Below are positions 2-52,845 of a stretch of 64,000 nucleotides of DNA, piece after piece. Origin of the DNA: Bacteroidales bacterium. Lineage in GTDB: Bacteria; Bacteroidota; Bacteroidia; Bacteroidales; UBA3663. Position numbers and translations under genes: made by a program. Under the pieces are notes generated by a model, which saw only the letters and a list, made by a program, of their open reading frames with translations, had not been told where the DNA came from and made no database searches. Where the stretch lies: assembly GCA_016293065.1 (NCBI GenBank), contig JAEDEY010000001.1, positions 7,156 to 71,155 on the forward strand. The letters run 5' to 3'. Position 1 is the stretch's first letter; the number at the start of each line of letters is the position of its first letter.

Positions 2-1060
2 TTTGACTTTGGCCATCTCGTCGCCGTGCCATCGGATCAATTCCTTCAGGCAGTAGCCGAGGCAGAGTCGGCCGAACCTTGCGAGTTTGCTGCGTGGTAT
101 AGGCTGCGTCTGCAACTCTCGCTTAGAGCCCTGCCTTATCACATCAGCGAACATCTCTATACTTTCGTTCCTTCTGAAGAGCAACAGATTTCGCAATTCG
201 ATTATGTCAATCCTCGCAACCGCAATGTCCAGCTCGAATGCGAACGTGTGTTTACCGCCTATCTGAAACGTTTTGGCGCATGGACCGATCATAAGCTGAT
301 GCAGCCTGCTACACCTCTCGATTCACATTCTCGGGTTGTGGCATCTGTGGTCATTCCTGCCTTCAATAGAGTCAAAACAATACGCGATGCCGTCACTTCG
401 GCACTGTCTCAGCAATGCAGCTTCTCGTTTAATGTCATTGTCGTAGATAACCACTCGACAGATGGTACGACCGAAGTGCTTCAAGAGATGGCAAAGGCCG
501 ATGTGAGTCTGGTTCATATTGTTCCTGAAGAACTGTCGCTCAAGATTGGCGGTTGCTGGAACAAGGCTGTCGAGAGCGAGATGTGCGGCGACTATGTAGT
601 GCAGCTCGACAGCGACGACATCTATAGTGGCAACGACACACTCCAGCGCATGGTCGATGCTTTCAACCAACAAGATTGCATGGCTGTGGTAGGCAGCTAT
701 AGGCTGACCGATTTCGATCTTCAGGAGTTGCCTCCAGGCATCATCGACCACCGCGAATGGACTCCAGAGAACGGCATGAACAATGCCCTTCGCATCAATG
801 GGTTGGGAGCTCCTCGTGGTTTCCGTCGCGACCTCCTGCGACAGCATCCATTGCCCAATACCAGTTATGGCGAAGACTATGCTGCCATGTTGCGCATCTG
901 CCGCCAATATCGCATTGGCCGTATCTACGATTCTCTTTACGATTGCCGCCGATGGTCGGGCAATAGCGATGCGTCACTCTCGCGCGAAAGACTCAATCGC
1001 AACAATCTCTACAAAGACCGCATCCGCAGCATCGAACTCCTTGCCCGAAAAAGAAAATAA
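2..1060 (+). CDS. Glycosyltransferase family 2 (N-terminus probably outside the window)
   Basis: The frame is open from base 2, with no stop upstream of the GTG at 26. GT-A/GT2 signature 'VVIPAFNRVKTIRDAVTSALSQ...NVIVVDNHSTDGT' and DxD motif 'QLDSDD'. Stop TAA at 1058-1060. Confidence 0.85.
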   Translation, partial: FDFGHLVAVPSDQFLQAVAEAESAEPCEFAAWYRLRLQLSLRALPYHISEHLYTFVPSEEQQISQFDYVNPRNRNVQLECERVFTAYLKRFGAWTDHKLMQPATPLDSHSRVVASVVIPAFNRVKTIRDAVTSALSQQCSFSFNVIVVDNHSTDGTTEVLQEMAKADVSLVHIVPEELSLKIGGCWNKAVESEMCGDYVVQLDSDDIYSGNDTLQRMVDAFNQQDCMAVVGSYRLTDFDLQELPPGIIDHREWTPENGMNNALRINGLGAPRGFRRDLLRQHPLPNTSYGEDYAAMLRICRQYRIGRIYDSLYDCRRWSGNSDASLSRERLNRNNLYKDRIRSIELLARKRK

Positions 1061-20285: not shown

Positions 20286-20357
20286 GGTCCTATCGAATAT
20301 CGGTTAGTTCGTCAGATTTTCATTCTGAAAAGCCGGGTTCGACTCCCGGTAGGACTA
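20286..20357 (+). tRNA. tRNA-Glu (anticodon UUC), 72 nt, CCA not encoded
   Basis: Manual cloverleaf. Acceptor GGTCCTA/TAGGACT (G1-U72 wobble). D arm GAAT-ATCGGTTA-GTTC (GG in loop, U13-G22). Anticodon arm TCAGA-TTTTCAT-TCTGA (U33, TTC, A37). 4-nt variable loop. T arm CCGGG-TTCGACT-CCCGG. Discriminator A. Confidence 0.75.
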
Positions 20358-20362
20358 CAATT

Positions 20363-40175: not shown

Positions 40176-40200
40176 TATTTGCTTATTTATTTAAATGTAT

Positions 40201-40208
40201 TAATTTTG
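40201..40208 (+). promoter_or_regulatory. -7 box TAATTTTG (followed by CGCG) upstream of dnaJ
   Basis: TAnnTTTG match 16 nt upstream of ATG 40224. Confidence 0.45.
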
Positions 40209-40223
40209 CGCGTGTCAAAAAGT

Positions 40224-41345
40224 ATGAAAATGGAAAAACAAGATTATTATGAGGTATTGGGCGTGAACAAAAACGCCACTGACGACGAAATTAAAAAAGC
40301 ATATCGAAGACTGGCTGTCAAATATCATCCTGACAAAAATCCTGGTGACAAGACAGCTGAGGAGATGTTCAAGAAGGTCGCTGAGGCATACGAGGTGTTG
40401 AGCGACCCGCAGAGAAGACAGAACTACGACCAGTTTGGTTTCGATGGCCCTCAAGCGAGTGGCTTTGGGGGAGGTGGATTCAATCCTTTCGACATCTTCA
40501 ACTCCTTCTTTGGTGGAAGTGGCGGCTTTTCGGGATTTGACGACGAAGGACCTCATTCGCGAGGAACGAATATCCGCGTGAGGGTGAAAGTCTCTCTTCA
40601 GGATATTGCCAATGGCGTAGAGAAACATATCAAGATCAAGAAATATGTAGAGTGTGAACACTGTCATGGCACTGGCGCCAAGGATGGAACTGCCTATGAG
40701 ACTTGCGGCAAGTGCAAGGGACGCGGTCGAGTGATTCAGACAGTCAATAGCCTCTTCGGGAGAATGCAGACCGAGTCGGTTTGTCCTGACTGCCACGGCA
40801 CTGGAAAGAAGATTAAGACCCGCTGCTCGCATTGCAATGGTCAAGGCGTTGTGATGGGCGAGGAGGTGATAGATGTTAAGATACCTGCAGGCGTTGCCGA
40901 GGGTATGCAGCTGTCGATGTCGGGCTATGGCAATGCCGCTCCTAACGGCGGACGACCAGGCGACCTCTTCATACTGATTGATGAGGAAAAGCAGGAAAAG
41001 TTCATCCGTGCCGATAACAACCTCATCTACAACCTGCTCCTTGATTTCCCTACTGCCGCACTCGGAGGAGAGGTAGAGGTGCCTCTCGTCGAAGGAACAG
41101 AGAAGGTGAAGATTCCTGCAGGAACACAGCCTAACACTCAGATACGTTTGGCAGGCAAGGGCTTGCCTACTGTCAACCGCTATGGCAAGGGCGATATCAT
41201 CATCAACATCTCGGTCTATGTGCCTGAGTCGCTCGACAATGACGAGAAGAAAATTATCGAGAGTCTTCGCGACCGTAAGAACTTCGGAGCCAACAAGTCG
41301 GCATTCGAAAAGTTCATCAACAAGATCAAGAATAGTTTCTCTTAA
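40224..41345 (+). CDS. dnaJ: Molecular chaperone DnaJ
   Basis: J domain 'DYYEVLGV...[10 protein letters not shown]', a G/F-rich linker, and four CxxCxGxG motifs ([32 protein letters not shown]). The start could be ATG 40224 or 40230. Confidence 0.95.
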
Positions 41346-41438: not shown

Positions 41439-42956
41439 ATGCTAAAGAAATTACGAGTAGCATTAGCCTCTGTCTTTCTTTTGGGACTGACTTGGCTGTT
41501 TCTTGACTTCACCGGCACGGCACAGTTGTGGTTCGGATGGATGGCAAAGCTGCAGTTCCTGCCAGCTGTATTGGCTGTCAATGTGGGAGTAGTGGTGCTC
41601 CTTGTCGCACTAACCATTATCTTTGGACGTATCTACTGTAGTGTGATATGTCCATTGGGAGTGTTTCAGGACATCGTCTCATGGATAAGTGCGAAGGCCC
41701 ACACCAAGCAGAAAGCCGGACGCTTCAATTATAGTCCTAATCACAAGATCCTCCGCATCTCGGTGCTGGTGGTCTTCGTCATCGCTCTTCTTGCAGGTGC
41801 CGGCTCGTTTGTCCAGATTCTTGCCCCATACAGTGCATTTGGCCGAATGGTGACGATGCTCCTTCAGCCTCTCTATATGCTGGCCAACAATTTCTTTGCC
41901 TATCTTGCTGAACGATACGACAGCTATGCTTTCTATAGTGTCAATGTCTGGATGCGCTCACTTCCAGTGCTCATCATCGCCAGCGTAACCTTCGTAGTGC
42001 TAGTGATTTTGGCGTGGATGCACGGTCGTACCTATTGCAACAACATTTGTCCTGTGGGCACCGTGCTCGGAGCATTGTCTCACCGCTCGCTCTTTGGCAT
42101 ACGCATTGACGAGACCAAGTGCAACGGCTGCAGCCTTTGTTCGCGCAACTGCAAGGCTGCTGCCATTGACTTCAAGAACCATAAGGTCGATCTCTCTCGC
42201 TGTGTCGATTGCTTCGACTGCATCGAAAAGTGCAAGAAACAGGCAATCACTTATAGCCTTGCGAAGAAACCATCGGGCAATGTGACATCATCTGCTAAAG
42301 ATATCAAGCAGCCGACTCGTCGTGCCTTCCTTACAGCCACAGCAGCTGTAACCGTAGGTGCAGCTCTCAAGGCTCAGGAGAAGACCACAGATGGCGGATT
42401 TGCTGCCATCCTCGACAAGGAGGTCATCAAGCGTCAGACCAAGATCGTTCCTCCAGGAGCCATCTCTCTCCGCAATATGGCACAGCATTGCACAGGCTGT
42501 CAGCTCTGTGTCTCAGAATGTCCAAATGGAGTGCTCCGTCCTTCTGGCGGGCTCCTCGACATGATGCAGCCAGTGGCATCCTACGAACGAGGCTACTGCC
42601 GTCCTGAATGCACCCGTTGCTCGGATGTGTGCCCTGCTGGCGCGATCAAGCCTTTCGCTGCCGATCATGAGGAAGCCAAGGCCATCAAGGCAAGCACCAA
42701 GATTGGACGTGCTGTCTGGGTAGAGAAGAACTGCATCCCACTCACCGATGGCAAGAACTGTGGAAACTGCGCTCGTCATTGTCCTTCTGGTGCCATCACC
42801 ATGGTTCCTTCCGACCCTAATAATCCGAAATCGCTCAAGATTCCTGTGGTCAATGATGAGCAATGCATAGGCTGTGGCGCATGCGAGAACCTCTGTCCTG
42901 CACGCCCATTCTCAGCCATCTATGTCGAAGGTATTGAAGTTCACCGTACACTTTAA
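41439..42956 (+). CDS. Membrane-bound polyferredoxin: NapH-like polytopic domain fused to a NapG-like multi-[4Fe-4S] domain
   Basis: N-terminal TM helices with two CX3CP motifs ('CSVICPLG', 'CNNICPVG'). Cluster motifs 'CNGCSLCSRNC' and 'CVDCFDCIEKC'. Internal 'QPTRRAFLTATAAVTVGAAL'. Then 'CTGCQLCVSECP', 'CTRCSDVCP', 'CGNCARHCP' and 'CIGCGACENLCP'. Confidence 0.75.
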   Translation: MLKKLRVALASVFLLGLTWLFLDFTGTAQLWFGWMAKLQFLPAVLAVNVGVVVLLVALTIIFGRIYCSVICPLGVFQDIVSWISAKAHTKQKAGRFNYSPNHKILRISVLVVFVIALLAGAGSFVQILAPYSAFGRMVTMLLQPLYMLANNFFAYLAERYDSYAFYSVNVWMRSLPVLIIASVTFVVLVILAWMHGRTYCNNICPVGTVLGALSHRSLFGIRIDETKCNGCSLCSRNCKAAAIDFKNHKVDLSRCVDCFDCIEKCKKQAITYSLAKKPSGNVTSSAKDIKQPTRRAFLTATAAVTVGAALKAQEKTTDGGFAAILDKEVIKRQTKIVPPGAISLRNMAQHCTGCQLCVSECPNGVLRPSGGLLDMMQPVASYERGYCRPECTRCSDVCPAGAIKPFAADHEEAKAIKASTKIGRAVWVEKNCIPLTDGKNCGNCARHCPSGAITMVPSDPNNPKSLKIPVVNDEQCIGCGACENLCPARPFSAIYVEGIEVHRTL

Positions 42957-42958
42957 AT

Positions 42959-44341
42959 ATGAATATTATGGAAAAGAACATTGACAGACGTGAGTTTTTG
43001 AAGCGTATGGGAGCTGGAGCTGCTGTGATAGGTGCGACTTCGGCATTGAATAGCTGCTCTGGTGGTGCAGGCTATGCTATGATCGAAAACATCGATCCCG
43101 CTGGTTCGGGTACCAAGCCAATCGGTGATATGACCTACCGTATCAATCATGAATGTGGCGACAAGGTCTCTATCCTTGGTTATGGTTGTATGCGTTGGCC
43201 AAATGACCCAAAGACAGGCGTGATTGATCAGGAGACTGTGAACCGTCTCGTAGATACTGCCATCGAACATGGCGTGAACTATTTCGACACGAGTCCTGCC
43301 TATCTTCGCGGACTTTCTGAACGTTCTACAGGCATCGCACTCAAGCGTCATCCTCGCGACAAGTATTTCATCGCTACCAAGCTGTCGAACTTCGCAGAAC
43401 AGCAGAAGAGCCGTGAGGCATCGATTGCCTTGTACAATAAGTCATTTACCGAACTTCAGGTCGATTATATCGACTATATGCTTCTCCACAGCATCGGAGG
43501 CAGCATGGAGGACTTCAACAAGCGATATATCCGCAACGGCATTCTCGATTTCCTTGTCGGAGAGAAGAAGAAAGGCAAGATCCGCAACCTCGGCTTCTCT
43601 TATCATGGCGACAACATGGTGTTCGACCATGTGATGAAGATGCACGATGAGGGACAGTATCACTGGGACTTCGTTCAGATCCAGATGAACTATGTCGATT
43701 GGATCACTGGCAACTGCCGCTATCTCTATGAGGAGCTTACCAAGCGCAATATCCCTATCATCATCATGGAGCCATTGCTTGGTGGACGACTCTCGAAACT
43801 GCCCAACCATGTGATTGCCCATTTCAAGCAGCGCCGTCCCAACGACAGTGCGGCATCGTGGGCTTTCCGTTTCCTCGGCACATATCCTAACATCCTCACC
43901 GTGCTTTCGGGCATGACATATATGGAGCACCTCGAAGACAATCTTCGCACCTATTGTCCGCTCGAACCTTTGACCGACGGGGATATGAAGTATCTTGAAG
44001 AGGCAGCACATCTCATCTTGAAGTACCCTACCATACCGTGCAATGACTGCAAGTACTGCATGCCTTGCCCTTATGGTCTCGACATCCCTGGCATTCTCCT
44101 GCATTATAACAAGTTTGTCAACGAGGGCACAATGCCAAACGAACAGGGTGATGAGAACTACAAGCGGCTCCGTCGCAATTACCTTATCAGCTACAACCGT
44201 ACCATCCCTGCGTTGCGTCAGGCCGACCATTGCATCCATTGTAATGCTTGCCTTTCGCATTGTCCGCAGAAGATCAATATCCCTCAGGAGCTCGAAAAGA
44301 TAGGCAACTTCATCGAACAGCTCAAGAGGGAAGGAAGATGA
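42959..44341 (+). CDS. Tat-signal (lipo)protein aldo/keto reductase with C-terminal 4Fe-4S ferredoxin domain
   Basis: N-terminus 'DRREFLKRMGAGAAVIGATSALNSC' (twin-arginine motif plus a lipobox-like Cys). AKR core ('YFDTSPAY', 'ATKL', 'DYIDYMLLH', 'GFSYHG'). C-terminal 'CNDCKYCMPCP' and 'CIHCNACLSHCP'. Confidence 0.75.
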   Translation: MNIMEKNIDRREFLKRMGAGAAVIGATSALNSCSGGAGYAMIENIDPAGSGTKPIGDMTYRINHECGDKVSILGYGCMRWPNDPKTGVIDQETVNRLVDTAIEHGVNYFDTSPAYLRGLSERSTGIALKRHPRDKYFIATKLSNFAEQQKSREASIALYNKSFTELQVDYIDYMLLHSIGGSMEDFNKRYIRNGILDFLVGEKKKGKIRNLGFSYHGDNMVFDHVMKMHDEGQYHWDFVQIQMNYVDWITGNCRYLYEELTKRNIPIIIMEPLLGGRLSKLPNHVIAHFKQRRPNDSAASWAFRFLGTYPNILTVLSGMTYMEHLEDNLRTYCPLEPLTDGDMKYLEEAAHLILKYPTIPCNDCKYCMPCPYGLDIPGILLHYNKFVNEGTMPNEQGDENYKRLRRNYLISYNRTIPALRQADHCIHCNACLSHCPQKINIPQELEKIGNFIEQLKREGR

Positions 44342-46803: not shown

Positions 46804-49347
46804 ATGAAAAGGATCACATTATTTTGCATGTCAGCACTTCTTCTAACGGCATGTAGTGAAACGTCACAGGTTGGCAATCCAGACCTGAAGATCAATGAAC
46901 TCGAATATTTTGAGGGCACTGGTGTCAATGTGCTTGTCTATAGCAACACCTTCAACGGAGGCTTCAACGACGAGAAGAATTCTGGCATCGAGATCATCCA
47001 CCATGGTGTACGCACAGTTCAGGGTGGTGCGGTGCGTCTGAACAAGACTCCTGAACAATGGGATCTTGTGCCTACCACTACATCGCGCACAGTCGATGCC
47101 GAGAACAGCAGCATCGAGGTGGCTCTCAACTACGCGGATTATGACTTCGATTCGCGCATTGTGGTGACAGGCAAGGGCAAGGCCGTTGAAATAGCGGTTT
47201 ATCTCGATGAGCCTTTGCCAGCTTTCCTTGAAGGTAAAGCAGGTTTCAACATAGAGTTCCTGCCTTCGCAGTATTGGCAGAAGACCTTCATCATGGATGG
47301 CAAGCTCGACCGTCTGCCTCGCTATACTTCCAGCGAGACGACTGCCGAACCAAACAGCGAGAAGCCAAAGCAGTTCAAGGGCTTTAAGACCTACGACGAC
47401 CGAGGCACTGGCAAGTTTGTCGATCCAAAGCCTCTCGCTACAGGCCATCACATCATACTTGCTTCCGACACTCCTGAACGCATGGTCACCGTCACTTCAG
47501 CCGATGCCGACCTCGAACTCTACGACGGACGTGTGCTTGCCCAGAACGGCTGGTACGTGCTTCGCAGCCCTCTTCCTGCTGGCAAGACTGGCAAGGTGCT
47601 CACATGGACAGTCGAGCCAAACGAGATTCCTAACTGGGTGCGTGAGCCAAACATTGGTTTCTCACAGGTGGGCTATATCCCTTCACAGCCAAAGATTGCC
47701 GTCATCGAGCTCGACAAGAACGACAAGGTTCAGTCGTCGGCTTCGCTCTACAGAATCAATCCTGATGGTTCGAGCACCAGGGCTTTCTCAGGAGCAACAA
47801 AGGAATGGGGTAGATATTATAAATACAATTATGCGCATTTCGACTTCTCGGCTGTCACTGAGCCTGGCATCTATTACATCCAGTATGGTGATACCAAGAC
47901 CAATAACTTCATCATCGACGAAAATGTCTATGACAAGATCACTGATGCCACGACCGACGTGTGGATTCCTATCCACATGAATCACATGGCAGTCAACGAA
48001 GGCTATCGTATGTGGCATGGCGAGCCTTTCAAGGAAGGTTATCTGCAAGCACCTCCCAGCGATCATTTCGACTTGCACTTTCAGGGTCCTGAGACAGAGA
48101 CTCGCTATAAGCCTTATGAACTGATTCCAGGACTTAATGTAGGTGGTTTCTTCGATGCGGGCGACTATGACATCGAGACCGATTCCAACATCGGAGTAGT
48201 GCAGAATCTCATCCGTGCATGGCGTCTCTTCCGTTCCGACCGCGACCAGACCTTCGTCAGCGAGGAACAGCGATATGTCGATCTGCATCGTCCTGACGGA
48301 ACACCCGACATCCTGCAGTTCATCGAACATGGTATGCTCAACCTTCTTGCTCAATCGGAGAAGATCGGTCACATGGCTTCGACATTGTCAAATGGTGTGC
48401 TCGACAACTATCATCATCTTGGCGACATCTCAGCCATCACCGATGGCTTGCACTACGACTCAAAGCTGAAGCCTTATACCAAGAGTGCCGATGGCAAGTC
48501 GAGTGGAGTGAACGATGATCTCTGGGCTTTCACTACCCGCAATCCTCGTCTCGACGCTCAGGCAGCAACGGTGTTTGCAGCTGCAAGCAAGGTGCTCGCA
48601 GACTATGACCCAGCTCTCGCCAAGCGTGCGTTGTCGGAGTCAAAGCGACTGATGAAAGAGAGTGAGGAACTGATGAAGAAAATGCCTACTCCTCCTATGA
48701 GCAACAGAGCATGGATGAGTATAGGTAATCTCGGCACAAACCTTGAGTTGTATGTGGCAACGGGCGAACAGTCTTATCTCGATGCGTTCAACGCACAGAT
48801 CTTCAAGGCTCTTGACCGCAATGTCTATTTCACTCTGCAGACAGCCCTCGATGCCGTGCCTTATCTTGGCGATGACTACAAGAACCAGCTTCGTCCGTAT
48901 GTCGAGCAATATAAGTCGTATATAGATAGTCTCGCATATCAGAATCCTTATGGCGTGCCTATTGGCCTCGGCAACTGGGCAGGAGGTGGACAGGTCACCA
49001 ACTTCGGCACTACCGTATGCTATGCACACCAGTATTTCCCCGACATTGTGCCAATGGATTGTGCCTACAAGACTGCTGCCTATATCTTTGGCTGTCACCC
49101 ATACCACAACTACTCGCTCGTAGCTGCAGTTGGTGCTGCTCGTCCGAAGGCTGTGTTCTATGGCAACAACCGTGCTGACTTCTCGTTCATTCCTGGTAAC
49201 ATGGCTCCTGGCATCCTCTTCCGTTATCCCGACCATTTCGAGAATTACGACGATTGGCCGTTCCTTTGGGGTCAGAACGAAGGCACCATAGCAGGCAATG
49301 TCGGTTATCTCATCTTTGGCTCGGCATTCAAGTCGATGGCTAAGTGA
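46804..49347 (+). CDS. Glycoside hydrolase family 9 lipoprotein (with N-terminal Ig-like domain)
   Basis: Lipoprotein signal 'MSALLLTACS'. GH9-type 'GGFFDAGDYDIETD' (DAGD motif) and the C-terminal catalytic region 'WGQNEGTIAGN'. 847 aa. Confidence 0.7.
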   Translation: MKRITLFCMSALLLTACSETSQVGNPDLKINELEYFEGTGVNVLVYSNTFNGGFNDEKNSGIEIIHHGVRTVQGGAVRLNKTPEQWDLVPTTTSRTVDAENSSIEVALNYADYDFDSRIVVTGKGKAVEIAVYLDEPLPAFLEGKAGFNIEFLPSQYWQKTFIMDGKLDRLPRYTSSETTAEPNSEKPKQFKGFKTYDDRGTGKFVDPKPLATGHHIILASDTPERMVTVTSADADLELYDGRVLAQNGWYVLRSPLPAGKTGKVLTWTVEPNEIPNWVREPNIGFSQVGYIPSQPKIAVIELDKNDKVQSSASLYRINPDGSSTRAFSGATKEWGRYYKYNYAHFDFSAVTEPGIYYIQYGDTKTNNFIIDENVYDKITDATTDVWIPIHMNHMAVNEGYRMWHGEPFKEGYLQAPPSDHFDLHFQGPETETRYKPYELIPGLNVGGFFDAGDYDIETDSNIGVVQNLIRAWRLFRSDRDQTFVSEEQRYVDLHRPDGTPDILQFIEHGMLNLLAQSEKIGHMASTLSNGVLDNYHHLGDISAITDGLHYDSKLKPYTKSADGKSSGVNDDLWAFTTRNPRLDAQAATVFAAASKVLADYDPALAKRALSESKRLMKESEELMKKMPTPPMSNRAWMSIGNLGTNLELYVATGEQSYLDAFNAQIFKALDRNVYFTLQTALDAVPYLGDDYKNQLRPYVEQYKSYIDSLAYQNPYGVPIGLGNWAGGGQVTNFGTTVCYAHQYFPDIVPMDCAYKTAAYIFGCHPYHNYSLVAAVGAARPKAVFYGNNRADFSFIPGNMAPGILFRYPDHFENYDDWPFLWGQNEGTIAGNVGYLIFGSAFKSMAK

Positions 49348-49387: not shown

Positions 49388-50341
49388 TTACACCTTCAAA
49401 GCTCTCAGGGCATTGCATACGGCGAGAATCATGATACCGGTGTCGGCAAACACTGCGAGCCACATGCTGGTGAAGCCGAATGCACTCAGAATGAGTACAA
49501 CGATCTTGACACCTATGGCAGCTATGATGTTCTGCCATACGATACTCATGCAACGCTGAGCAATTTTCTTAGCAATATCAAGTCGAGAAGGGTCATCGTC
49601 AGCAAAAGCTATCTCATCGCTTGGGATAGAGCCTCGGCTGAGCTGTTCGAGACCGCAACCATCGGTAATGAGAATGCCGTGCGAGCTGGCATTGATGATA
49701 GAGGCAAAGAAAGTCATAGGGATACTGATGACCAGTGCACAAGGACAACTGATGACGAGGAAGGTGAGTGCGCGATAGAGCCAGGTGTTCCATTCTGCCT
49801 CACAACCTAAAGCCATGTTGATCATGGGAACTCCAATTAACAGCAACAAGGAACCAAGACAGACAAAAGGTGTATAGACCTTGGCAAAACGGGTGATAAA
49901 TGCCTCGGAACGTGATGACTGACGCGAGCCCTCGTGTTTCGCTATGCCGAGTTCTCTGATTTTCTTCATGCTCTTGATGCTTGCATAGCCTTGGAAATAC
50001 TCACCAATGCGGAAGAAAAGAATTACCGAGATGGCCTCTCCATAGTCGCCTGATCCCTCGATAATGGCAAGCGCAAAGACACCTAATGTGGCCACTGCCA
50101 TAAGAAAATACTCGTCGAACCATTGGCCGTGGACAATGCCCCTGATGGCTTTCCATAGCACATCGATGCCTACAAAGAGATAGACTGCGACATAGACCAA
50201 AAGCTTTGACGACGCGGAGTCAATGTGGTCTGACAGTAGATTGGCCGCAAGGTATAGCACTGAAGCAACTACGATACGGACGAGGTCACCATGCGAAGCC
50301 GCATGATGGTGATGATGGTGGTTATGTTGATTGTCGGACAT
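49388..50341 (-). CDS. P1B-type heavy-metal ATPase homologue reduced to its membrane domain (no actuator, phosphorylation or nucleotide-binding domains)
   Basis: 317 aa from 'MSDNQHNHHHHHHAASHG'. It keeps 'FITRFAKVYTP', 'FLVISCPCALVISIP...GILITDGCGLEQL' and C-terminal 'MWLAVFADTGIMILAVCNALRAL', all close to ZntA/CadA-type pumps. No TGES, DKTGT or GDGxND motifs are present. Confidence 0.75.
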   Translation of the reverse strand: MSDNQHNHHHHHHAASHGDLVRIVVASVLYLAANLLSDHIDSASSKLLVYVAVYLFVGIDVLWKAIRGIVHGQWFDEYFLMAVATLGVFALAIIEGSGDYGEAISVILFFRIGEYFQGYASIKSMKKIRELGIAKHEGSRQSSRSEAFITRFAKVYTPFVCLGSLLLLIGVPMINMALGCEAEWNTWLYRALTFLVISCPCALVISIPMTFFASIINASSHGILITDGCGLEQLSRGSIPSDEIAFADDDPSRLDIAKKIAQRCMSIVWQNIIAAIGVKIVVLILSAFGFTSMWLAVFADTGIMILAVCNALRALKV

Positions 50342-50370
50342 TTTTTTATAATTTACCCAATTTGGAGTGG

Positions 50371-50378
50371 CAAAGATA
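50371..50378 (-). promoter_or_regulatory. -7 box TATCTTTG (minus strand) upstream of the truncated P1B homologue
   Basis: The plus strand reads CAAAGATA, 30 nt upstream of ATG 50341. Confidence 0.55.
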
Positions 50379-50430
50379 GAAAAAAAACAACAAATAGCGA
50401 AATTTATTAGGTAAATATGAATAAATATCA

Positions 50431-50438
50431 TAACTTTG
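50431..50438 (+). promoter_or_regulatory. -7 box TAACTTTG upstream of the CotH-family gene
   Basis: TAnnTTTG match 26 nt upstream of ATG 50464. Confidence 0.5.
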
Positions 50439-50463
50439 TACAAAAATTATTACCTATTTCATC

Positions 50464-52845
50464 ATGAAAAGAATATTTACCTTTTTGATGGCACTATCTC
50501 TGTGGGTCATCCCTAGTGAAGCGCAAGTGGTGATTAATGAGTTCATGCAATCAAATATCGATTGTGTAATGGACGATTTGAACGACTTTCCAGACTCGTG
50601 GGTGGAGTTGTACAATGCTGGTTCTGCTCCTGTCGATATGTCGGAATTCAGCATCGGTACATCGAGAAAAGCGAACAAGGCCTACAAGTTGCCGAAGCAG
50701 ACTCTCAATGCCAATGATTATGTACTGGTGTATTGTGACAAAGAAGAGAAGTCTTGGCATACATCTTTTAGACTTGAGTCGGGCAAGGGCTGCACCATCT
50801 ATCTGTTCCATGGTAGTGAGATTGAAGACTCTATACCATCGGGACTAAAAAAACAACCTGCTCCAAACATCGCATATGGACGCAAGACTGACGCTTCGGA
50901 CAAATGGGGATATATGGCAGTTCCAACACCAAAGGCCGCCAACTGCGGCACTATTTACAGTAAGATATTAGACAACCCTATGTTCAGCATTCCAGGCATG
51001 GTATATGCTGACAAGGCTAAACCTCTGACATTGGAAATCTCACTACCAGAAGGCTCTCCCGAAGGAACCGTGATACGATATACGACCGATGGAAAAGAAC
51101 CTACCGAGACAAGCAAGAGATATACGGCCCCTATCTCTTTTTCAACTACGACAGTGGTCAGAGCAAAGCTCTTCTGCGACGGATACATGTCGCCACGATC
51201 GACCACACATTCCTACATCATGTTAGGCAGAAAGGCCGACCTAGCTGTCGTATCGGTAGTGTCGGATGCCAAATATTTTACCGATAGCAAGATTGGCATC
51301 TTTTCTGATTCAAAGTCTTTTGATGGCACAGAAAACTACAAACACAACTGGCGTCGTCCGATCAACTATGAGTTGTTTGAGACCAATGGTGAAGAAAGCA
51401 AGCTGAATCAGCTGTGCGAGGCACGTGTCACTGGAGGCGCTTCTCGCGGTTGTGCACTAAAGTCGATGGGGCTCTATGCCAACAAGCGTTTCGGCGAGAA
51501 GCGTTTCAACTATGAGTTCTTTCCCGACCAGCGTCAAGGGATCACTGATTTCAAGTCGGTAATGATGCGCAACGCTGGCAACGACTTCGATTATCTCTAT
51601 ATGCGTGATGCGGTGATACAGCGTATCATGTCAGAGAATGTCGATATAGACTGGCAGGCATGGCGACCAGCCATTTTCTTCCTCAATGGACAATACAAGG
51701 GCATACTCAACATACGTGAACGTAGTAACGAAGACAATATATACACCAACTACGACGGACTCGAAGATATTGACATGGTTGAGAACTGGTATGAGCTGAA
51801 GGAAGGTGACTATGATGAGTGGAAGGCTTTCATGGATTTCTATCAGGCTCATGGTCACAGCTATGAGGAATATGACAAGATAATGGACGTAAGTGAGTTT
51901 ATGAATGTCATGATACTCAATCTCTTCTTCTGCAATCTCGATTTCCCTGGCAACAATATAGTGTGGTGGAAGCCGCAGGCAGAGGGCGGTCGATGGCGTG
52001 TCATTGTCAAGGATACCGACTTCGGATTGGGTCTCTATGGACGCAGTGTGAGCTACAATACCATCAAGTGGCTGTATGACCCTAACTATGACAAAGACAA
52101 TGCCTGGGCCAACAGGTATGAGCACACGCGCCTGTTCCGCCGACTGATGGAGGATGAGCGCTTCAGTCGTGAGTTCATCGACCGCTGTGCGATATATATG
52201 GGCGACTTCATGAACCTCGACCGCACATGGGAGATATGGGAGCCGATGTATAACCTCATTCGCAACGAGTATCCTATTCACCGCAAACTCTACAACGAGT
52301 GGTGGCCAAACTACAACACCGAATTGTCGAATGCAAAAACCTGGCTCAAGAACCGTCCGGCAATATTCTACAAGCATATCAGTGATTACTATAAAGTCGG
52401 GACTCCAGTTAATTTGGCGATTAACCAGTCGCTGTCATCGGCTGATCTCAGCCGTATTGAAGTGTCGTTCAATGGTGTCAAGCTTACCCGTTCAAAATTC
52501 GACGGCAAGTTCTTTGCAGGTCGTTCGGTTGTGCTGACCGGCGAGAATGTCGTTGGTTGGAGAGTCTGCGAGACTACATCGTCGGGCGAACTGAAGACAA
52601 GAGATGTCGAGGGCTCGACTCTCACATTGACTATGCCAAATGCCACCAGTGTAGCAATCACGGCAAAGGTGGGCGATGCGGATGGCATAGGGCAGATTAC
52701 CGGTGCTGATACAGAATCGGCAATAGTAGATATCTATGACCCAGCGGGAATGAAGCGCGAAGCAGTAGGACAAGGCTACAACATAGTTCGCACAGAAGAT
52801 GGCAAGGCTAAGAAGATATGGCAATCAACGGTTAGTGCGGAATAA
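50464..52845 (+). CDS. Secreted CotH-family (atypical kinase fold) protein with N-terminal lamin-tail domain
   Basis: Signal peptide. LTD-like 'VVINEFMQSN...DSWVELYNAGSAPVDMSEFSI'. Chitobiase/FN3-associated-like 'IRYTTDGKEPTETSKRYTAPI'. CotH core 'MMRNAGNDFDYLYMRDAV...LNGQYKGILNIRE'. Confidence 0.7.
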   Translation: MKRIFTFLMALSLWVIPSEAQVVINEFMQSNIDCVMDDLNDFPDSWVELYNAGSAPVDMSEFSIGTSRKANKAYKLPKQTLNANDYVLVYCDKEEKSWHTSFRLESGKGCTIYLFHGSEIEDSIPSGLKKQPAPNIAYGRKTDASDKWGYMAVPTPKAANCGTIYSKILDNPMFSIPGMVYADKAKPLTLEISLPEGSPEGTVIRYTTDGKEPTETSKRYTAPISFSTTTVVRAKLFCDGYMSPRSTTHSYIMLGRKADLAVVSVVSDAKYFTDSKIGIFSDSKSFDGTENYKHNWRRPINYELFETNGEESKLNQLCEARVTGGASRGCALKSMGLYANKRFGEKRFNYEFFPDQRQGITDFKSVMMRNAGNDFDYLYMRDAVIQRIMSENVDIDWQAWRPAIFFLNGQYKGILNIRERSNEDNIYTNYDGLEDIDMVENWYELKEGDYDEWKAFMDFYQAHGHSYEEYDKIMDVSEFMNVMILNLFFCNLDFPGNNIVWWKPQAEGGRWRVIVKDTDFGLGLYGRSVSYNTIKWLYDPNYDKDNAWANRYEHTRLFRRLMEDERFSREFIDRCAIYMGDFMNLDRTWEIWEPMYNLIRNEYPIHRKLYNEWWPNYNTELSNAKTWLKNRPAIFYKHISDYYKVGTPVNLAINQSLSSADLSRIEVSFNGVKLTRSKFDGKFFAGRSVVLTGENVVGWRVCETTSSGELKTRDVEGSTLTLTMPNATSVAITAKVGDADGIGQITGADTESAIVDIYDPAGMKREAVGQGYNIVRTEDGKAKKIWQSTVSAE

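Follow-up and report, generated by a model that had tools for sequence, protein, structure and literature searches.

Why should an aldo/keto reductase (AKR) be encoded directly behind a membrane polyferredoxin, with a twin-arginine (Tat)-like segment in both proteins? This question is raised by two genes within a 64,000-nucleotide stretch of Bacteroidales DNA (the window), one encoding a polyferredoxin (ORF1, PFD) and the other an AKR (ORF2). As the original prediction had placed them, both lie on the + strand and are separated by 2 nt, the TAA stop codon of ORF1 occupying positions 42954-42956 and the ATG of ORF2 starting at 42959 (Table 1). A Tat-like pattern, scored as RR-x-hydrophobic-hydrophobic with a stretch of 12 or more uncharged residues behind it, was found among the 88 six-frame ORFs of the window (at least 100 aa) in these two mutual neighbours only, and it arises in 0.7% (ORF1) and 0.4% (ORF2) of composition-preserving shuffles. 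The genes around the pair encode NamZ, an HD protein, DnaJ, an ABC transporter and GH9. The neighbourhood scan revealed no nap, nos or mau genes near the pair, the 64-kb window holds no tatA or tatC, and TM1506 and a 5-TM gene are absent from this locus. From their sequences, ORF1 and ORF2 look like a dedicated, previously uncharacterised extracytoplasmic redox module.

Table 1. Features of the PFD-AKR gene pair, numbered from the first letter of the window.
Feature	Position	Strand	Description and basis
ORF1 (PFD gene)	41439..42956	+	fused NapH-like/NapG-like polytopic polyferredoxin, 505 aa; ORF list
NapH-like membrane domain	41457..42014	+	TM1 aa 7-25, TM2 44-62, TM3 107-125, TM4 174-192; Kyte-Doolittle
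Segment after TM4, predicted cytoplasmic	42036..42233	+	second CX3CP C200/C204 (CNNICP) and two CX2CX2CX3C (C228-C238, C255-C265)
Internal RR motif T293-R-R-A-F-L with 15-residue Ala/Thr-rich h-region (predicted fifth, Tat-dependent TM)	42315..42374	+	conservation, hydropathy, NapG alignment
L310-K-A312·Q313, conserved (L/V/A)-x-A·Q-E site past the h-region	42366..42377	+	orthologue counts
NapG-like domain, predicted extracytoplasmic	42489..42896	+	four [4Fe-4S]-type motifs C351-361, C387-398, C432-448, C476-486
ORF2 (AKR gene)	42959..44341	+	Tat-signal, lipobox-bearing AKR with C-terminal Fe-S domain, 460 aa; ORF list, Pfam
Tat-type lipoprotein signal D-R10-R11-E-F-L-K-R, h-region, L-N-S-C33	42959..43057	+	orthologue conservation
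AKR (beta/alpha)8 core, aa 73-349	43175..44005	+	Pfam Aldo_ket_red, conserved tetrad and motifs
C-terminal Fe-S domain C361-x2-C-x2-C-x2-C370-P and C425-x2-C-x2-C-x3-C435-P	44039..44263	+	Pfam, invariant Cys

Architecture of the polyferredoxin and the aldo/keto reductase

ORF1 had been read as a fusion of NapH and NapG with CX3CP motifs of the CSVICPLG/CNNICPVG type, and Pfam and NCBIfam matches agree with this reading at the level of domains. The protein matches Fer4_5 and several Fer4 families, the NCBIfam NapH model aligns to aa 171-275, and positions 4-198 of the NapG model, the NapG signal region included, align to aa 287-488. Scores against the NapH/MauN models are 79.0 bits for a cut-off of 234 (NF007013) and 77.2 for 213.05 (TIGR02163), and those against NapG/MauM are 62.8 for 269 (NF007012) and 61.7 for 178.85 (TIGR00397), so that no cut-off is reached. 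ORF1 was thus rejected as a true member of the NapH/NapG families, its scores being far under the equivalog cut-offs, its modules fused and no nap/mau/nos cluster being at hand. Judged by these matches, its NapH-like part is a homologous domain and not a NapH equivalog, and with scores this low quinol oxidation by PFD cannot be assumed. More than 8000 PFD homologues exist, with '4Fe-4S binding protein' as their sole annotation. In an 18-sequence alignment, 28/28 Cys together with R294, R295 and F297 are invariant, with 16 invariant Cys distributed over the four motifs of the NapG-like domain.

TM1-TM4 reach hydropathy values of 1.9-2.9 in a Kyte-Doolittle scan, and the first CX3CP (C67/C71, CSVICP) follows TM2. 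Since the N-terminus and the TM2-TM3 loop are K/R-rich, an N-in topology of the membrane domain is indicated, on the basis of hydropathy and the positive-inside rule only. The helices of the AF2 model coincide with TM1-TM4 in a low-confidence, unreliable model (pLDDT 46). The internal Tat-like segment 'QPTRRAFLTATAAVTVGAAL', with its RR at 294-295, lies at the place originally proposed (aa 290-312, nt 42306-42374); the number of TM helices before it is even (four), and it aligns to the part of the NapG model that covers the N-terminal signal. PFD orthologues carry RR in 72/75 cases and KR in the other 3/75; the second R and the F are conserved at 100% and the first R at 96%, within a linker conserved at 20-30%. 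The fifth segment is less hydrophobic than TM1 and TM2 (KD15 of 1.68 versus 2.74 and 2.81) and is followed by a mean of 2.3 K/R within 12 residues past the h-region. In the h-region flank, 61 PFD sequences display Ala at position -1 of the A·Q-E site (59/61), L/V/A/I at -3 (57/61) and Gln at +1 (50/61), which makes it a possible signal peptidase I site, at which the protein may be cleaved, or else a positively charged 'Sec-abort' flank.

The N-terminus of ORF2, 'DRREFLKRMGAGAAVIGATSALNSC', displays DRREFLKR, a 17-residue h-region and LNSC33, in agreement with the Tat lipoprotein consensus used here (S/T-R-R-x-F-L-K, an uncharged h-region and the lipobox [LVI]-x-[GAS]-C). The 'RREFLK' motif and lipobox Cys pointed out in the original prediction are kept among AKR orthologues, an RR-type motif being present in 84/84 (83 RR, 1 KR) and the Cys in 83/84; C33 is invariant in alignment A1, and distant Tat-type AKRs (35-58% identity) retain the RR. 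The predicted AKR core is matched by Aldo_ket_red (PF00248) at E 3.9e-39 (134.9 bits versus a Pfam gathering threshold of 24). The tetrad D110, Y115, K141 and H177 is invariant in A1, at positions that agree with AKR alignments, and the conserved EPLLGGRL and LSGMTxxEHLxDN align with cofactor-site motifs of AKR11C1 and AKR14A1, while the canonical S-N is replaced by S-Y/F-H in the ORF2 family. Conservation of the tetrad and of the C-terminal cofactor-site motifs counts in favour of catalytic competence. A single-sequence search with the C-terminal half alone returned no PDB match. The two expected C-terminal Cys clusters (C361/364/367/370 and C425/428/431/435) have all eight Cys invariant and match the dicluster families Fer4_9, Fer4_8 and Fer4_17, and the domain therefore probably binds two [4Fe-4S] clusters. 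In the AF2 model, the core superimposes on solved AKRs with a target-normalised TM-score (TMt) of 0.7-0.8, residues 1-44 are disordered and the C-terminal Fe-S domain is of low confidence; no solved structure of an AKR with such a domain was found. At least 8000 AKR homologues were found.

Gene neighbourhoods and tat linkage

PFD adjoins AKR in 76/80 species-representative genomes (upstream in 75, downstream in 1), with flanks that differ, and reciprocally PFD has AKR as its next downstream gene in 75/80 metagenome loci. The pair is conserved across gut Bacteroidales. It is adjacent in reversed order on a Selenomonas-like contig, where the internal RR is kept, and in another locus beyond Bacteroidales (L086) the two genes are two genes apart. 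A Tat-AKR without nearby PFD was seen at L014, L031, L068 and L084, and a PFD without nearby AKR at L117, L130 and L147. Canonical tatA-tatC genes are located 0-3 genes downstream of the pair in 19/80 related loci, and they also adjoin the distant Tat-AKR of L084. Signal-less AKR-FeS proteins (about 370-380 aa; Aldo_ket_red with Fer4_9/Fer4_17) have the AKR core and both Cys motifs in common with ORF2 at 36-41% identity; they make up a group of their own, lack a signal peptide, run about 80 aa shorter than the Tat-AKRs and are likewise uncharacterised. In the two contexts sampled, these relatives have no adjacent PFD and sit among sugar-metabolism genes (GH94, SDRs, HPr, sugar isomerase-like). 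Adjacency, conservation of both RR segments, tatA-tatC linkage and the signal-less AKRs without PFD together support the view that PFD and AKR are a real, coupled system. The original prediction had turned on RR segments retained in the orthologues of both genes and on a pair kept together, and this is what was found, across Bacteroidales and beyond. The linkage to tatA-tatC is support beyond what that prediction had to hand.

In roughly one locus out of three, AKR is followed by TM1506 and by a 170-aa, ECF-S-like membrane protein; at most loci neither TM1506 nor the 5-TM gene accompanies the pair. In one protein, P0122, the parts occur naturally fused as Tat-AKR-FeS-TM1506. Some loci have a gene for a TonB-dependent receptor inserted among the others, and a minority show recurrent flavodoxin-family genes close to the pair. 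The neighbourhoods examined yielded no FMN-binding or ApbE gene, no consistently linked cytoplasmic partner gene and no substrate hint. We found no report of a polyferredoxin-AKR-Tat linkage in the literature.

Proposed mechanism and direction of electron flow

The best explanation, which we hold to be moderately probable, is that the pair constitutes a dedicated extracytoplasmic redox module, in which a dual Sec/Tat PFD docks a Tat-exported AKR. Sec would insert the four NapH-like helices with the N-terminus inside, so that both CX3CP motifs and the ferredoxin domain with its two clusters stay on the cytoplasmic side. The NapG-like domain would gain four [4Fe-4S] clusters in the cytoplasm before being translocated by TatAC via the internal S/T-R-R-x-F-L motif, the weakly hydrophobic fifth segment becoming an anchor or being cleaved. 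AKR would fold in the cytoplasm, where it would be loaded with two Fe-S clusters and probably with a nicotinamide cofactor that it binds tightly; Tat would export it, Cys33 would be lipidated, and in the periplasm it would dock on the NapG-like domain. Up to eight clusters in a row would then join the AKR active site to the membrane (menaquinone) or to a cytoplasmic electron pool, and the AKR substrate would be a small periplasmic molecule undergoing carbonyl/alcohol redox chemistry. Electrons would most likely flow outward to a reductase, the donor being either menaquinol or a low-potential cytoplasmic carrier.

AKRs work by hydride transfer from NAD(P)H, and the potentials concerned are about -74 mV for menaquinol, about -200 mV for simple carbonyls and -320 mV for NAD(P)+. 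Menaquinol-driven reduction of ordinary carbonyls by AKR is thermodynamically doubtful, and since menaquinol is too weak, a 'quinol-dependent carbonyl reductase' in the literal sense of the original prediction would work only with a substrate of high potential, with a cytoplasmic donor of low potential or in reverse. The extracellular aldehydes or ketones proposed there as substrates, and the respiratory or detoxifying role, are conjectural. Pfam and NCBIfam detected no flavin-binding domain in PFD or AKR, hence there is no obvious converter of one-electron Fe-S transfer to hydride transfer. Less probably, AKR could instead be a periplasmic dehydrogenase of an alcohol, aldose or polyol, whose electrons would reach menaquinone via PFD and feed fumarate respiration. 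Thermodynamics would favour this direction, since menaquinone lies at a far less negative potential than alcohol/aldose couples and NAD(P)H; in both sequence and fold, L-galactose dehydrogenases are the closest relatives of AKR with a solved structure, and the sugar-metabolism surroundings of the signal-less relatives point the same way. NapH-like modules have also been proposed to be able to accept electrons from oxidases, e.g. alcohol oxidase (Meheust et al. 2021, PMC8238504). Nevertheless, the outward direction is by analogy the most likely, because NapGH, NosGH/NosR and PceC-type NapH-like proteins send electrons outward to periplasmic enzymes (PMC5449189, PMC8238504); besides, a dehydrogenase would face the same lack of an evident flavin for hydride to one-electron coupling, and the pair neighbourhoods offer no clue to its substrate. 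The problem of reducing carbonyls or bound NAD(P)+ would disappear if PFD were a transmembrane conduit and not a quinol dehydrogenase, with ferredoxin or flavodoxin (e.g. from pyruvate:ferredoxin oxidoreductase) reducing the dicluster domain and low-potential electrons reaching AKR. The invariance of the cytoplasmic dicluster domain and both CX3CP motifs, the NapH equivalog score (79 vs 234 bits) and the flavodoxin-family genes of some loci are in line with such a conduit. We regard it as rather unlikely, however, as the loci show no consistent linkage to a gene for a cytoplasmic partner and the membrane domain of characterised NapH is regarded as the quinol-oxidising part (PMC5449189, PMC8238504).

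For TM1506-AKR-5TM operons, Iyer et al. 2011 (PMC3239186) proposed a sensory role, whereby AKR, resembling Kv-beta, would mainly sense redox state through bound NAD(P) or serve as a regulatory subunit, and not as a metabolic enzyme, controlling transport with TM1506 (DUF1893) and the 5-TM protein. The loci with TM1506 and the ECF-S-like protein, the interleaved TonB-dependent receptors and the P0122 fusion would suit this role, but the window and most loci lack both partner genes, the full catalytic tetrad is invariant, and sensing alone would scarcely call for a ten-cluster electron path; sensing as the main function thus appears improbable. We consider it highly improbable that the RR segments are non-functional as Tat signals, with the Fe-S domains and AKR cytoplasmic and the AKR N-terminus a membrane anchor or irrelevant. 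The window indeed holds no tat genes, yet RR and F are kept inside otherwise variable segments, the lipobox Cys is conserved, tatAC is linked to the pair, the signal-less paralogues form their own, shorter population, and PFD is homologous to a class whose Tat dependence has been shown by experiment (PMC5449189). In agreement with this, the predicted topology does not place the C-terminal Fe-S domain or AKR in the cytoplasm.

Relation to known systems

With the pair read as an extracytoplasmic redox module, the likeness to dual Sec/Tat polyferredoxins drawn in the original prediction turned out to be exact. Tooke et al. 2017 (PMC5449189) described a NapH-NapG fusion polyferredoxin (Q1NSB0 of delta proteobacterium MLMS-1) as a dual Sec/Tat protein and demonstrated its Tat dependence with reporter fusions; the passages on this family name Chloroflexi, Nitrospirae and Euryarchaeota as hosts and list a cytoplasmic RR, a last TM of low hydrophobicity and subsequent positive charges as features of the Sec-to-Tat handover. 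ORF1 displays the same NapH-like domain fused to a NapG-like domain with four cluster motifs, and its RR after TM4 directly precedes a last, weakly hydrophobic segment and then positive charges, hydrophobicity being given as KD15 here and on the Hessa delta-G scale by Tooke et al. The polyferredoxin part belongs to a class already described and experimentally tested, and is not novel as a class. What differs is that the ORF1 family is Bacteroidales-wide, tightly paired with a Tat-signal AKR and endowed with a conserved A·Q-E site that suggests possible cleavage. The polyferredoxin passages of PMC5449189, to whose description ORF1 is likened, name no partner enzyme or Bacteroidetes member.

Meheust et al. 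2021 (PMC8238504) reported NapH-like (PF12801) membrane Fe-S modules (PceC, NosR and others) beside varied extracytosolic oxidoreductases; these modules expose an ApbE-flavinylated FMN-binding domain outside, where ORF1 has a NapG-like polyferredoxin domain instead. The operons of Iyer et al. 2011 (PMC3239186) share their TM1506 and 5-TM neighbours with loci seen in Bacteroidetes and Firmicutes, whereas polyferredoxin, Tat signals and tatAC are unmentioned there and the AKR Cys motifs, read here as Fe-S, were taken as a Zn ribbon.

Both modules are shared with NapGH (E. coli, Wolinella succinogenes), MauMN and NosGH, which combine a four-TM CX3CP protein bearing a cytoplasmic dicluster with a Tat-exported four-cluster ferredoxin; by analogy to NapGH, the presumed common role would be to link an enzyme in the periplasm with the electron pool of the membrane. 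Unlike in these systems, the modules are fused in one polypeptide in ORF1, and the partner is an AKR and not a molybdo-, copper- or quinoprotein. Export of a nicotinamide-dependent oxidoreductase has a precedent in Zymomonas mobilis GFOR, which is Tat-exported with NADP bound and thus shows how AKR could work where free NAD(P)H is absent; GFOR itself has a Gfo/Idh/MocA fold without Fe-S clusters and regenerates its cofactor in a ping-pong mechanism with two substrates, not through an electron wire. Altogether, the pair is a NapGH-type module whose terminal enzyme is novel.

Architecture and export signals of the two proteins

The sequence elements listed by the original prediction for the 505-aa polyferredoxin (ORF1) and for the aldo/keto reductase with a C-terminal Fe-S domain (AKR-FeS, ORF2) were all recovered in place (see table). 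ORF1 matches Fer4_5 and many Fer4 families in Pfam and, among the NCBIfam models, NapH over aa 171–275 and NapG over aa 287–488, with scores far under the equivalog cut-offs (79 versus 234 bits for NapH; 63 versus 269 bits for NapG). Because the NapG match spans model positions 4–198, the internal RR segment aligns with the N-terminal signal region of NapG. Conservation was followed in 75 full-length sequences, the window protein and its orthologues at 49–62% identity: [S/T]-R-R-x-F-[L/I/M] occurs in 72/75 and K-R in 3/75; conservation reaches 100% at the second Arg and the Phe and 96% at the first Arg, while column conservation in the linker before the RR is only 15–30%. In an alignment of 18 sequences all 28 Cys are invariant. 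The conservation of the internal RR supports the original prediction.

K/R residues abound at the N-terminus of ORF1 (MLKKLR) and in the loop between TM2 and TM3, pointing to an N-in orientation; with four transmembrane segments before it, the RR would then be cytoplasmic and the next segment would cross from inside to outside. This topology places the four-cluster NapG-like domain, by prediction, outside the membrane. The best 15-residue Kyte-Doolittle mean of the fifth segment is 1.68, versus 2.74 for TM1 and 2.81 for TM2, and Lys residues come after it. An AF2 model has helices at the same five positions and is otherwise unusable (pLDDT 46). Tooke et al. 2017 (PMC5449189) describe a Sec-to-Tat handover governed by low hydrophobicity and trailing positive charge, equate the 'polytopic polyferredoxin' explicitly with a NapH-NapG fusion, and used fusions to the reporters MBP and AmiA to show that it depends on Tat. 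Since ORF1 shares this architecture and these handover features, the supposed likeness to dual Sec/Tat-inserted polyferredoxins stands, and ORF1 can be counted as a new member of an experimentally supported class. Directly 3' of the Tat-type h-region, (L/V/A)-x-A|Q-E is conserved (A312|Q313 in ORF1), with Ala at position -1 in 59/61 orthologues. The region resembles a signal peptidase I site, and a cut at A312|Q313 would convert the fusion into separate NapH-like and NapG-like proteins; A|Q-E may also be just the charged flank for the Sec-to-Tat handover.

The Tat signal and lipobox attributed to the AKR likewise recur, with an RR-type motif in 84/84 sequences (83 RR, 1 KR) and a lipobox-type Cys ([LMIVF]-x-[GAS]-C) 12–45 residues after it in 83/84, consistent with export of a lipid-anchored enzyme. 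Its catalytic tetrad (D110, Y115, K141, H177) and eight C-terminal Cys are all invariant. By sequence and predicted fold, the core is nearest to L-galactose dehydrogenases and the AKR11-14 families; in the AF2 model (pLDDT 66 overall) the core is usable and the Fe-S domain poor. Sequence searches of our PDB copy found no solved structure of an Fe-S-domain AKR or of a NapH/NapG-type protein, and when only the C-terminal half of the AKR core was queried there was no PDB match and only weak profile matches. A Tat-like pattern defined as RR-x-hydrophobic-hydrophobic, then at least 12 uncharged residues, arose in 0.7% (ORF1) and 0.4% (ORF2) of protein shuffles; six-frame translation of the window gives 88 ORFs of 100 aa or longer, and these two alone have it. 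Conservation is a stronger argument against chance than the shuffles.

Positions of the features discussed (unprefixed nucleotide ranges refer to the window; L-numbers are related loci in other genomes or metagenome contigs)
Feature	Position	Strand	Remark
ORF1, 505 aa	41439-42956	+	same strand as ORF2, 2-nt gap
ORF1 hydrophobic segments	aa 7-25, 44-62, 107-125, 174-192		four, strong
ORF1 CX3CP motifs	C67/C71; C200/C204		directly after segment 2; directly after segment 4
ORF1 classical ferredoxin motifs	C228-C238, C255-C265		after the CX3CP sites
ORF1 internal Tat-like segment	RR = 294-295		TRRAFLTATAAVTVGAAL; after a variable linker
ORF1 candidate cleavage site	42366-42377, aa L310-Q313
ORF1 four further cluster-type Cys motifs	up to C486		3' of the RR segment
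ORF2, 460 aa	42959-44341	+	N-terminus DRREFLKRMGAGAAVIGATSALNSC
ORF2 Aldo_ket_red domain	aa 73-349		Pfam, E 3.9e-39
ORF2 two C-terminal Cys motifs			read as a dicluster domain by Pfam
TM1506 and ECF-S-like region	L002 9416-10393; L064 7377-8326
tatA/tatC region	L064 8372-9341
tatA/tatC region	L028 7578-8606
tatA/tatC region	L060 7505-8478
tatA/tatC region	L082 7435-8383
tatA/tatC region	L015 8380-9385
tatA/tatC region	L084 7273-8239		adjoins a distant Tat-type AKR
Orphan polyferredoxin	L117 3992-5512
tRNA-Glu (anticodon ttc)	20286-20358	+
DnaJ ORF	40179-41345	+	mechanical start TTG
Antisense ORF, 132 aa	42953-43351	-
Antisense ORF, 272 aa	43442-44260	-
GH9/CelD_N gene	46804-49347	+
351-aa ORF	49388-50443	-
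LTD/CotH protein	50464-52845	+

Recurrence of the pair and its linkage to tat genes

A genome scan with the AKR profile, using one genome per GTDB species, returned 80 Bacteroidales loci from Bacteroides, Phocaeicola, Parabacteroides, Alistipes, Prevotella, Muribaculaceae, Rikenellaceae and others. The polyferredoxin gene lies directly upstream of the AKR in 75 of them (gap 9–211 nt) and directly downstream in one; it is absent from the flank examined in four, one of which is cut by a contig end. In the reciprocal scan, with the polyferredoxin profile on metagenome contigs, the AKR directly follows the polyferredoxin in 75 of 80 loci, the other five being two truncated loci and three orphan polyferredoxins. 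The anticipated co-occurrence of the genes across Bacteroidales therefore holds in 76/80 genome and 75/80 metagenome loci, and the pair is near-universal in the order. Because the flanks vary widely among genome loci, the adjacency is more than frozen gene order; the differing flanks, a sometimes inverted order and recurrence of the pair in another phylum speak against chance or shared synteny alone as its cause. The orphan polyferredoxins (L117, L130, L147) keep the internal RR (DTSRRTFLIGVAVAM) with no AKR within 4 kb downstream, and Tat-type AKRs occur with no polyferredoxin nearby in L014, L031 and L068. Extra AKRs in L005, L053, L069 and L076, considered as polyferredoxin-sharing paralogues, proved to be ordinary AKRs lacking Fe-S and Tat features.

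Searching 1.8 billion cluster representatives resolved two AKR-FeS populations. Members of one (~450–470 aa, 35–58% identity) align from the signal onward, and those sampled with a complete N-terminus retain the RR-type motif; the other (~370–380 aa) lacks the N-terminal 60–70 residues. A Selenomonas-like contig carries a distant Tat-type AKR directly followed by a polyferredoxin with an internal MTRRELLGTATLAVG, and another Tat-type AKR has a polyferredoxin two genes upstream, while two sampled signal-less members have sugar-metabolism neighbours and no polyferredoxin nearby. On this small sample, the polyferredoxin accompanies the exported form of the AKR, as a transmembrane electron supply predicts. 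Fusions of the signal-less relatives (to a TPP enzyme, a histidine phosphatase or a methyltransferase) were too heterogeneous to serve as a clue to function, and only a TM1506 fusion was informative.

A TatC gene (Pfam E 7e-65) lies 0–3 genes downstream of the AKR in 19/80 genome loci, preceded where checked by a canonical TatA ORF (MFGIGTPELIFI...LLFGGKKIPELMKGLGKG), and the tatA-tatC linkage also occurs in 11/80 metagenome loci. In an unrelated lineage, a Tat-type AKR (37% identity) is convergent with tatC-tatA, with no polyferredoxin nearby. The linkage provides independent genomic support for the pair as Tat clients and suggests that it may rank among the important ones in these organisms. 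Also 3' of the AKR, each in about a third of loci, are TM1506/DUF1893 (E 2.6e-49; sometimes overlapping the AKR stop by 4 nt) and a 170-aa ECF-S-like membrane protein; a TonB-dependent receptor, a secreted Flavodoxin_4 and a DUF362 lipoprotein are occasional neighbours. TM1506 itself lacks a signal peptide, and the Salinivirgaceae protein P0122 is a natural Tat-AKR-FeS-TM1506 fusion, with TM1506 at the C terminus (aa 474–602). These two features suggest that TM1506 travels and acts together with the AKR, possibly as a co-exported subunit.

No tat gene, TM1506, ECF-like gene or Flavodoxin_4 was found in the 64-kb window, where the pair is flanked by NamZ/HD/DnaJ on one side and an ABC transporter and the GH9 gene on the other. 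For the DnaJ ORF the internal Met at 40227, a few residues before the DnaJ domain, is the more likely start than TTG. The GH9 hydrolase, with CelD_N, adjoins a large protein with lamin-tail (LTD), CHB_HEX_C/Fn3-associated and CotH kinase domains. The N-terminus of the 351-aa ORF is poly-His (HNHHHHHH), and the ORF has a partial E1-E2_ATPase match only; it resembles a heavy-metal P-type ATPase without most of the phosphorylation and nucleotide domains, and may be a remnant or truncated variant. Two antisense ORFs lie inside the AKR gene, and similar ORFs in related higher-GC loci were rejected as genes, being spurious shadow ORFs. Rfam searches for a riboswitch or RNA leader 5' of the pair, in the window and 11 related loci, found only tRNAs, the tRNA-Glu being the only Rfam or ARAGORN match in the 64 kb. 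A scan for sigma-70 promoters and terminators, uninformative for Bacteroidetes, gave no more matches than the shuffled expectation.

Proposed cofactor and direction of electron flow

The best-supported reading is that the pair would form a NapGH-like module. The AKR active site would be linked with a membrane or cytoplasmic electron pool through the CX3CP sites and a chain of at most eight [4Fe-4S] clusters, of which two are cytoplasmic, four belong to the NapG-like domain and two to the AKR. By analogy with NapGH, NosGH/NosR and PceC, electrons would by default flow outward to a reductase. With a potential of about -74 mV, menaquinol is poorly suited to reduce ordinary carbonyls (about -200 mV) or NAD(P)+ (-320 mV), and therefore the literal 'quinol-dependent carbonyl reductase' of the original prediction needs one of three conditions. 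One is a substrate of high potential, for example a quinone, a dicarbonyl or something like dehydroascorbate. Electrons might instead come from a low-potential cytoplasmic donor through the cytoplasmic dicluster domain, or flow in reverse, the AKR being a periplasmic dehydrogenase that feeds menaquinone. Each of the three stands as a possible rival.

Invariant EPLLGGRL and LSGMTxxEHLxDN motifs of the AKR align with motifs of AKR11C1 and AKR14A1 that in AKRs border the site for the pyrophosphate and adenosine of NAD(P)H, which makes a bound nicotinamide cofactor plausible. The periplasm lacks an NAD(P)H pool, so this cofactor would need to be exported in the bound state, for which the GFOR of Zymomonas is a precedent, and then recycled in place. 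The main mechanistic gap is how one-electron Fe-S clusters would recycle nicotinamide without a flavin. We consider it unlikely that all of the following hold together: that the AKR-FeS lipoprotein is a new AKR class in which an Fe-S wire takes the place of exchangeable NAD(P)H in driving the active site, either directly or via permanently bound nicotinamide; that the module is a principal Tat client in Bacteroidales, explaining tatAC in the same operon in many species; that the polyferredoxin precursor is cut at A|Q-E after Tat transport, so that one gene gives both a membrane subunit like NapH and a free periplasmic ferredoxin like NapG; and that TM1506/DUF1893 is an NAD/ADP-ribose-binding subunit hitch-hiking out with the AKR.

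Significance and relation to known systems

Bacteroidales dominate the human and animal gut and, to our knowledge, their extracytoplasmic redox chemistry and Tat clients are poorly known. If the model holds, the pair would give NapGH-like electron modules a new type of terminal enzyme, and an AKR working without a free nicotinamide pool would be a mechanistic puzzle. The pair is found in a Bacteroides ovatus genome, and dual Sec/Tat insertion would then have a natural, abundant case in a cultured species whose genus is already served by genetic tools. The pair could matter for the metabolism in the gut of carbonyls or polyols of dietary, host or drug origin, or for how cofactors are handled in the envelope.

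Public annotation of the two proteins is generic only ('4Fe-4S binding protein', 'aldo/keto reductase'). Full-text literature searches turned up nothing that couples an AKR to a NapGH-type protein or polyferredoxin, and no account of a periplasmic, Tat-exported or Fe-S AKR or of tatAC linkage. Both the class of polyferredoxin and the association of TM1506 with an AKR have been published before. TM1506-AKR-5TM operons were described by Iyer et al. 2011 (PMC3239186), who suggested NAD or ADP-ribose as the ligand of TM1506, interpreted the Cys motifs as a zinc ribbon, and mentioned neither the polyferredoxin nor Tat. Set against these systems, we rate the pair as a putative extracytoplasmic electron module of the NapGH type whose terminal enzyme has no reported precedent.
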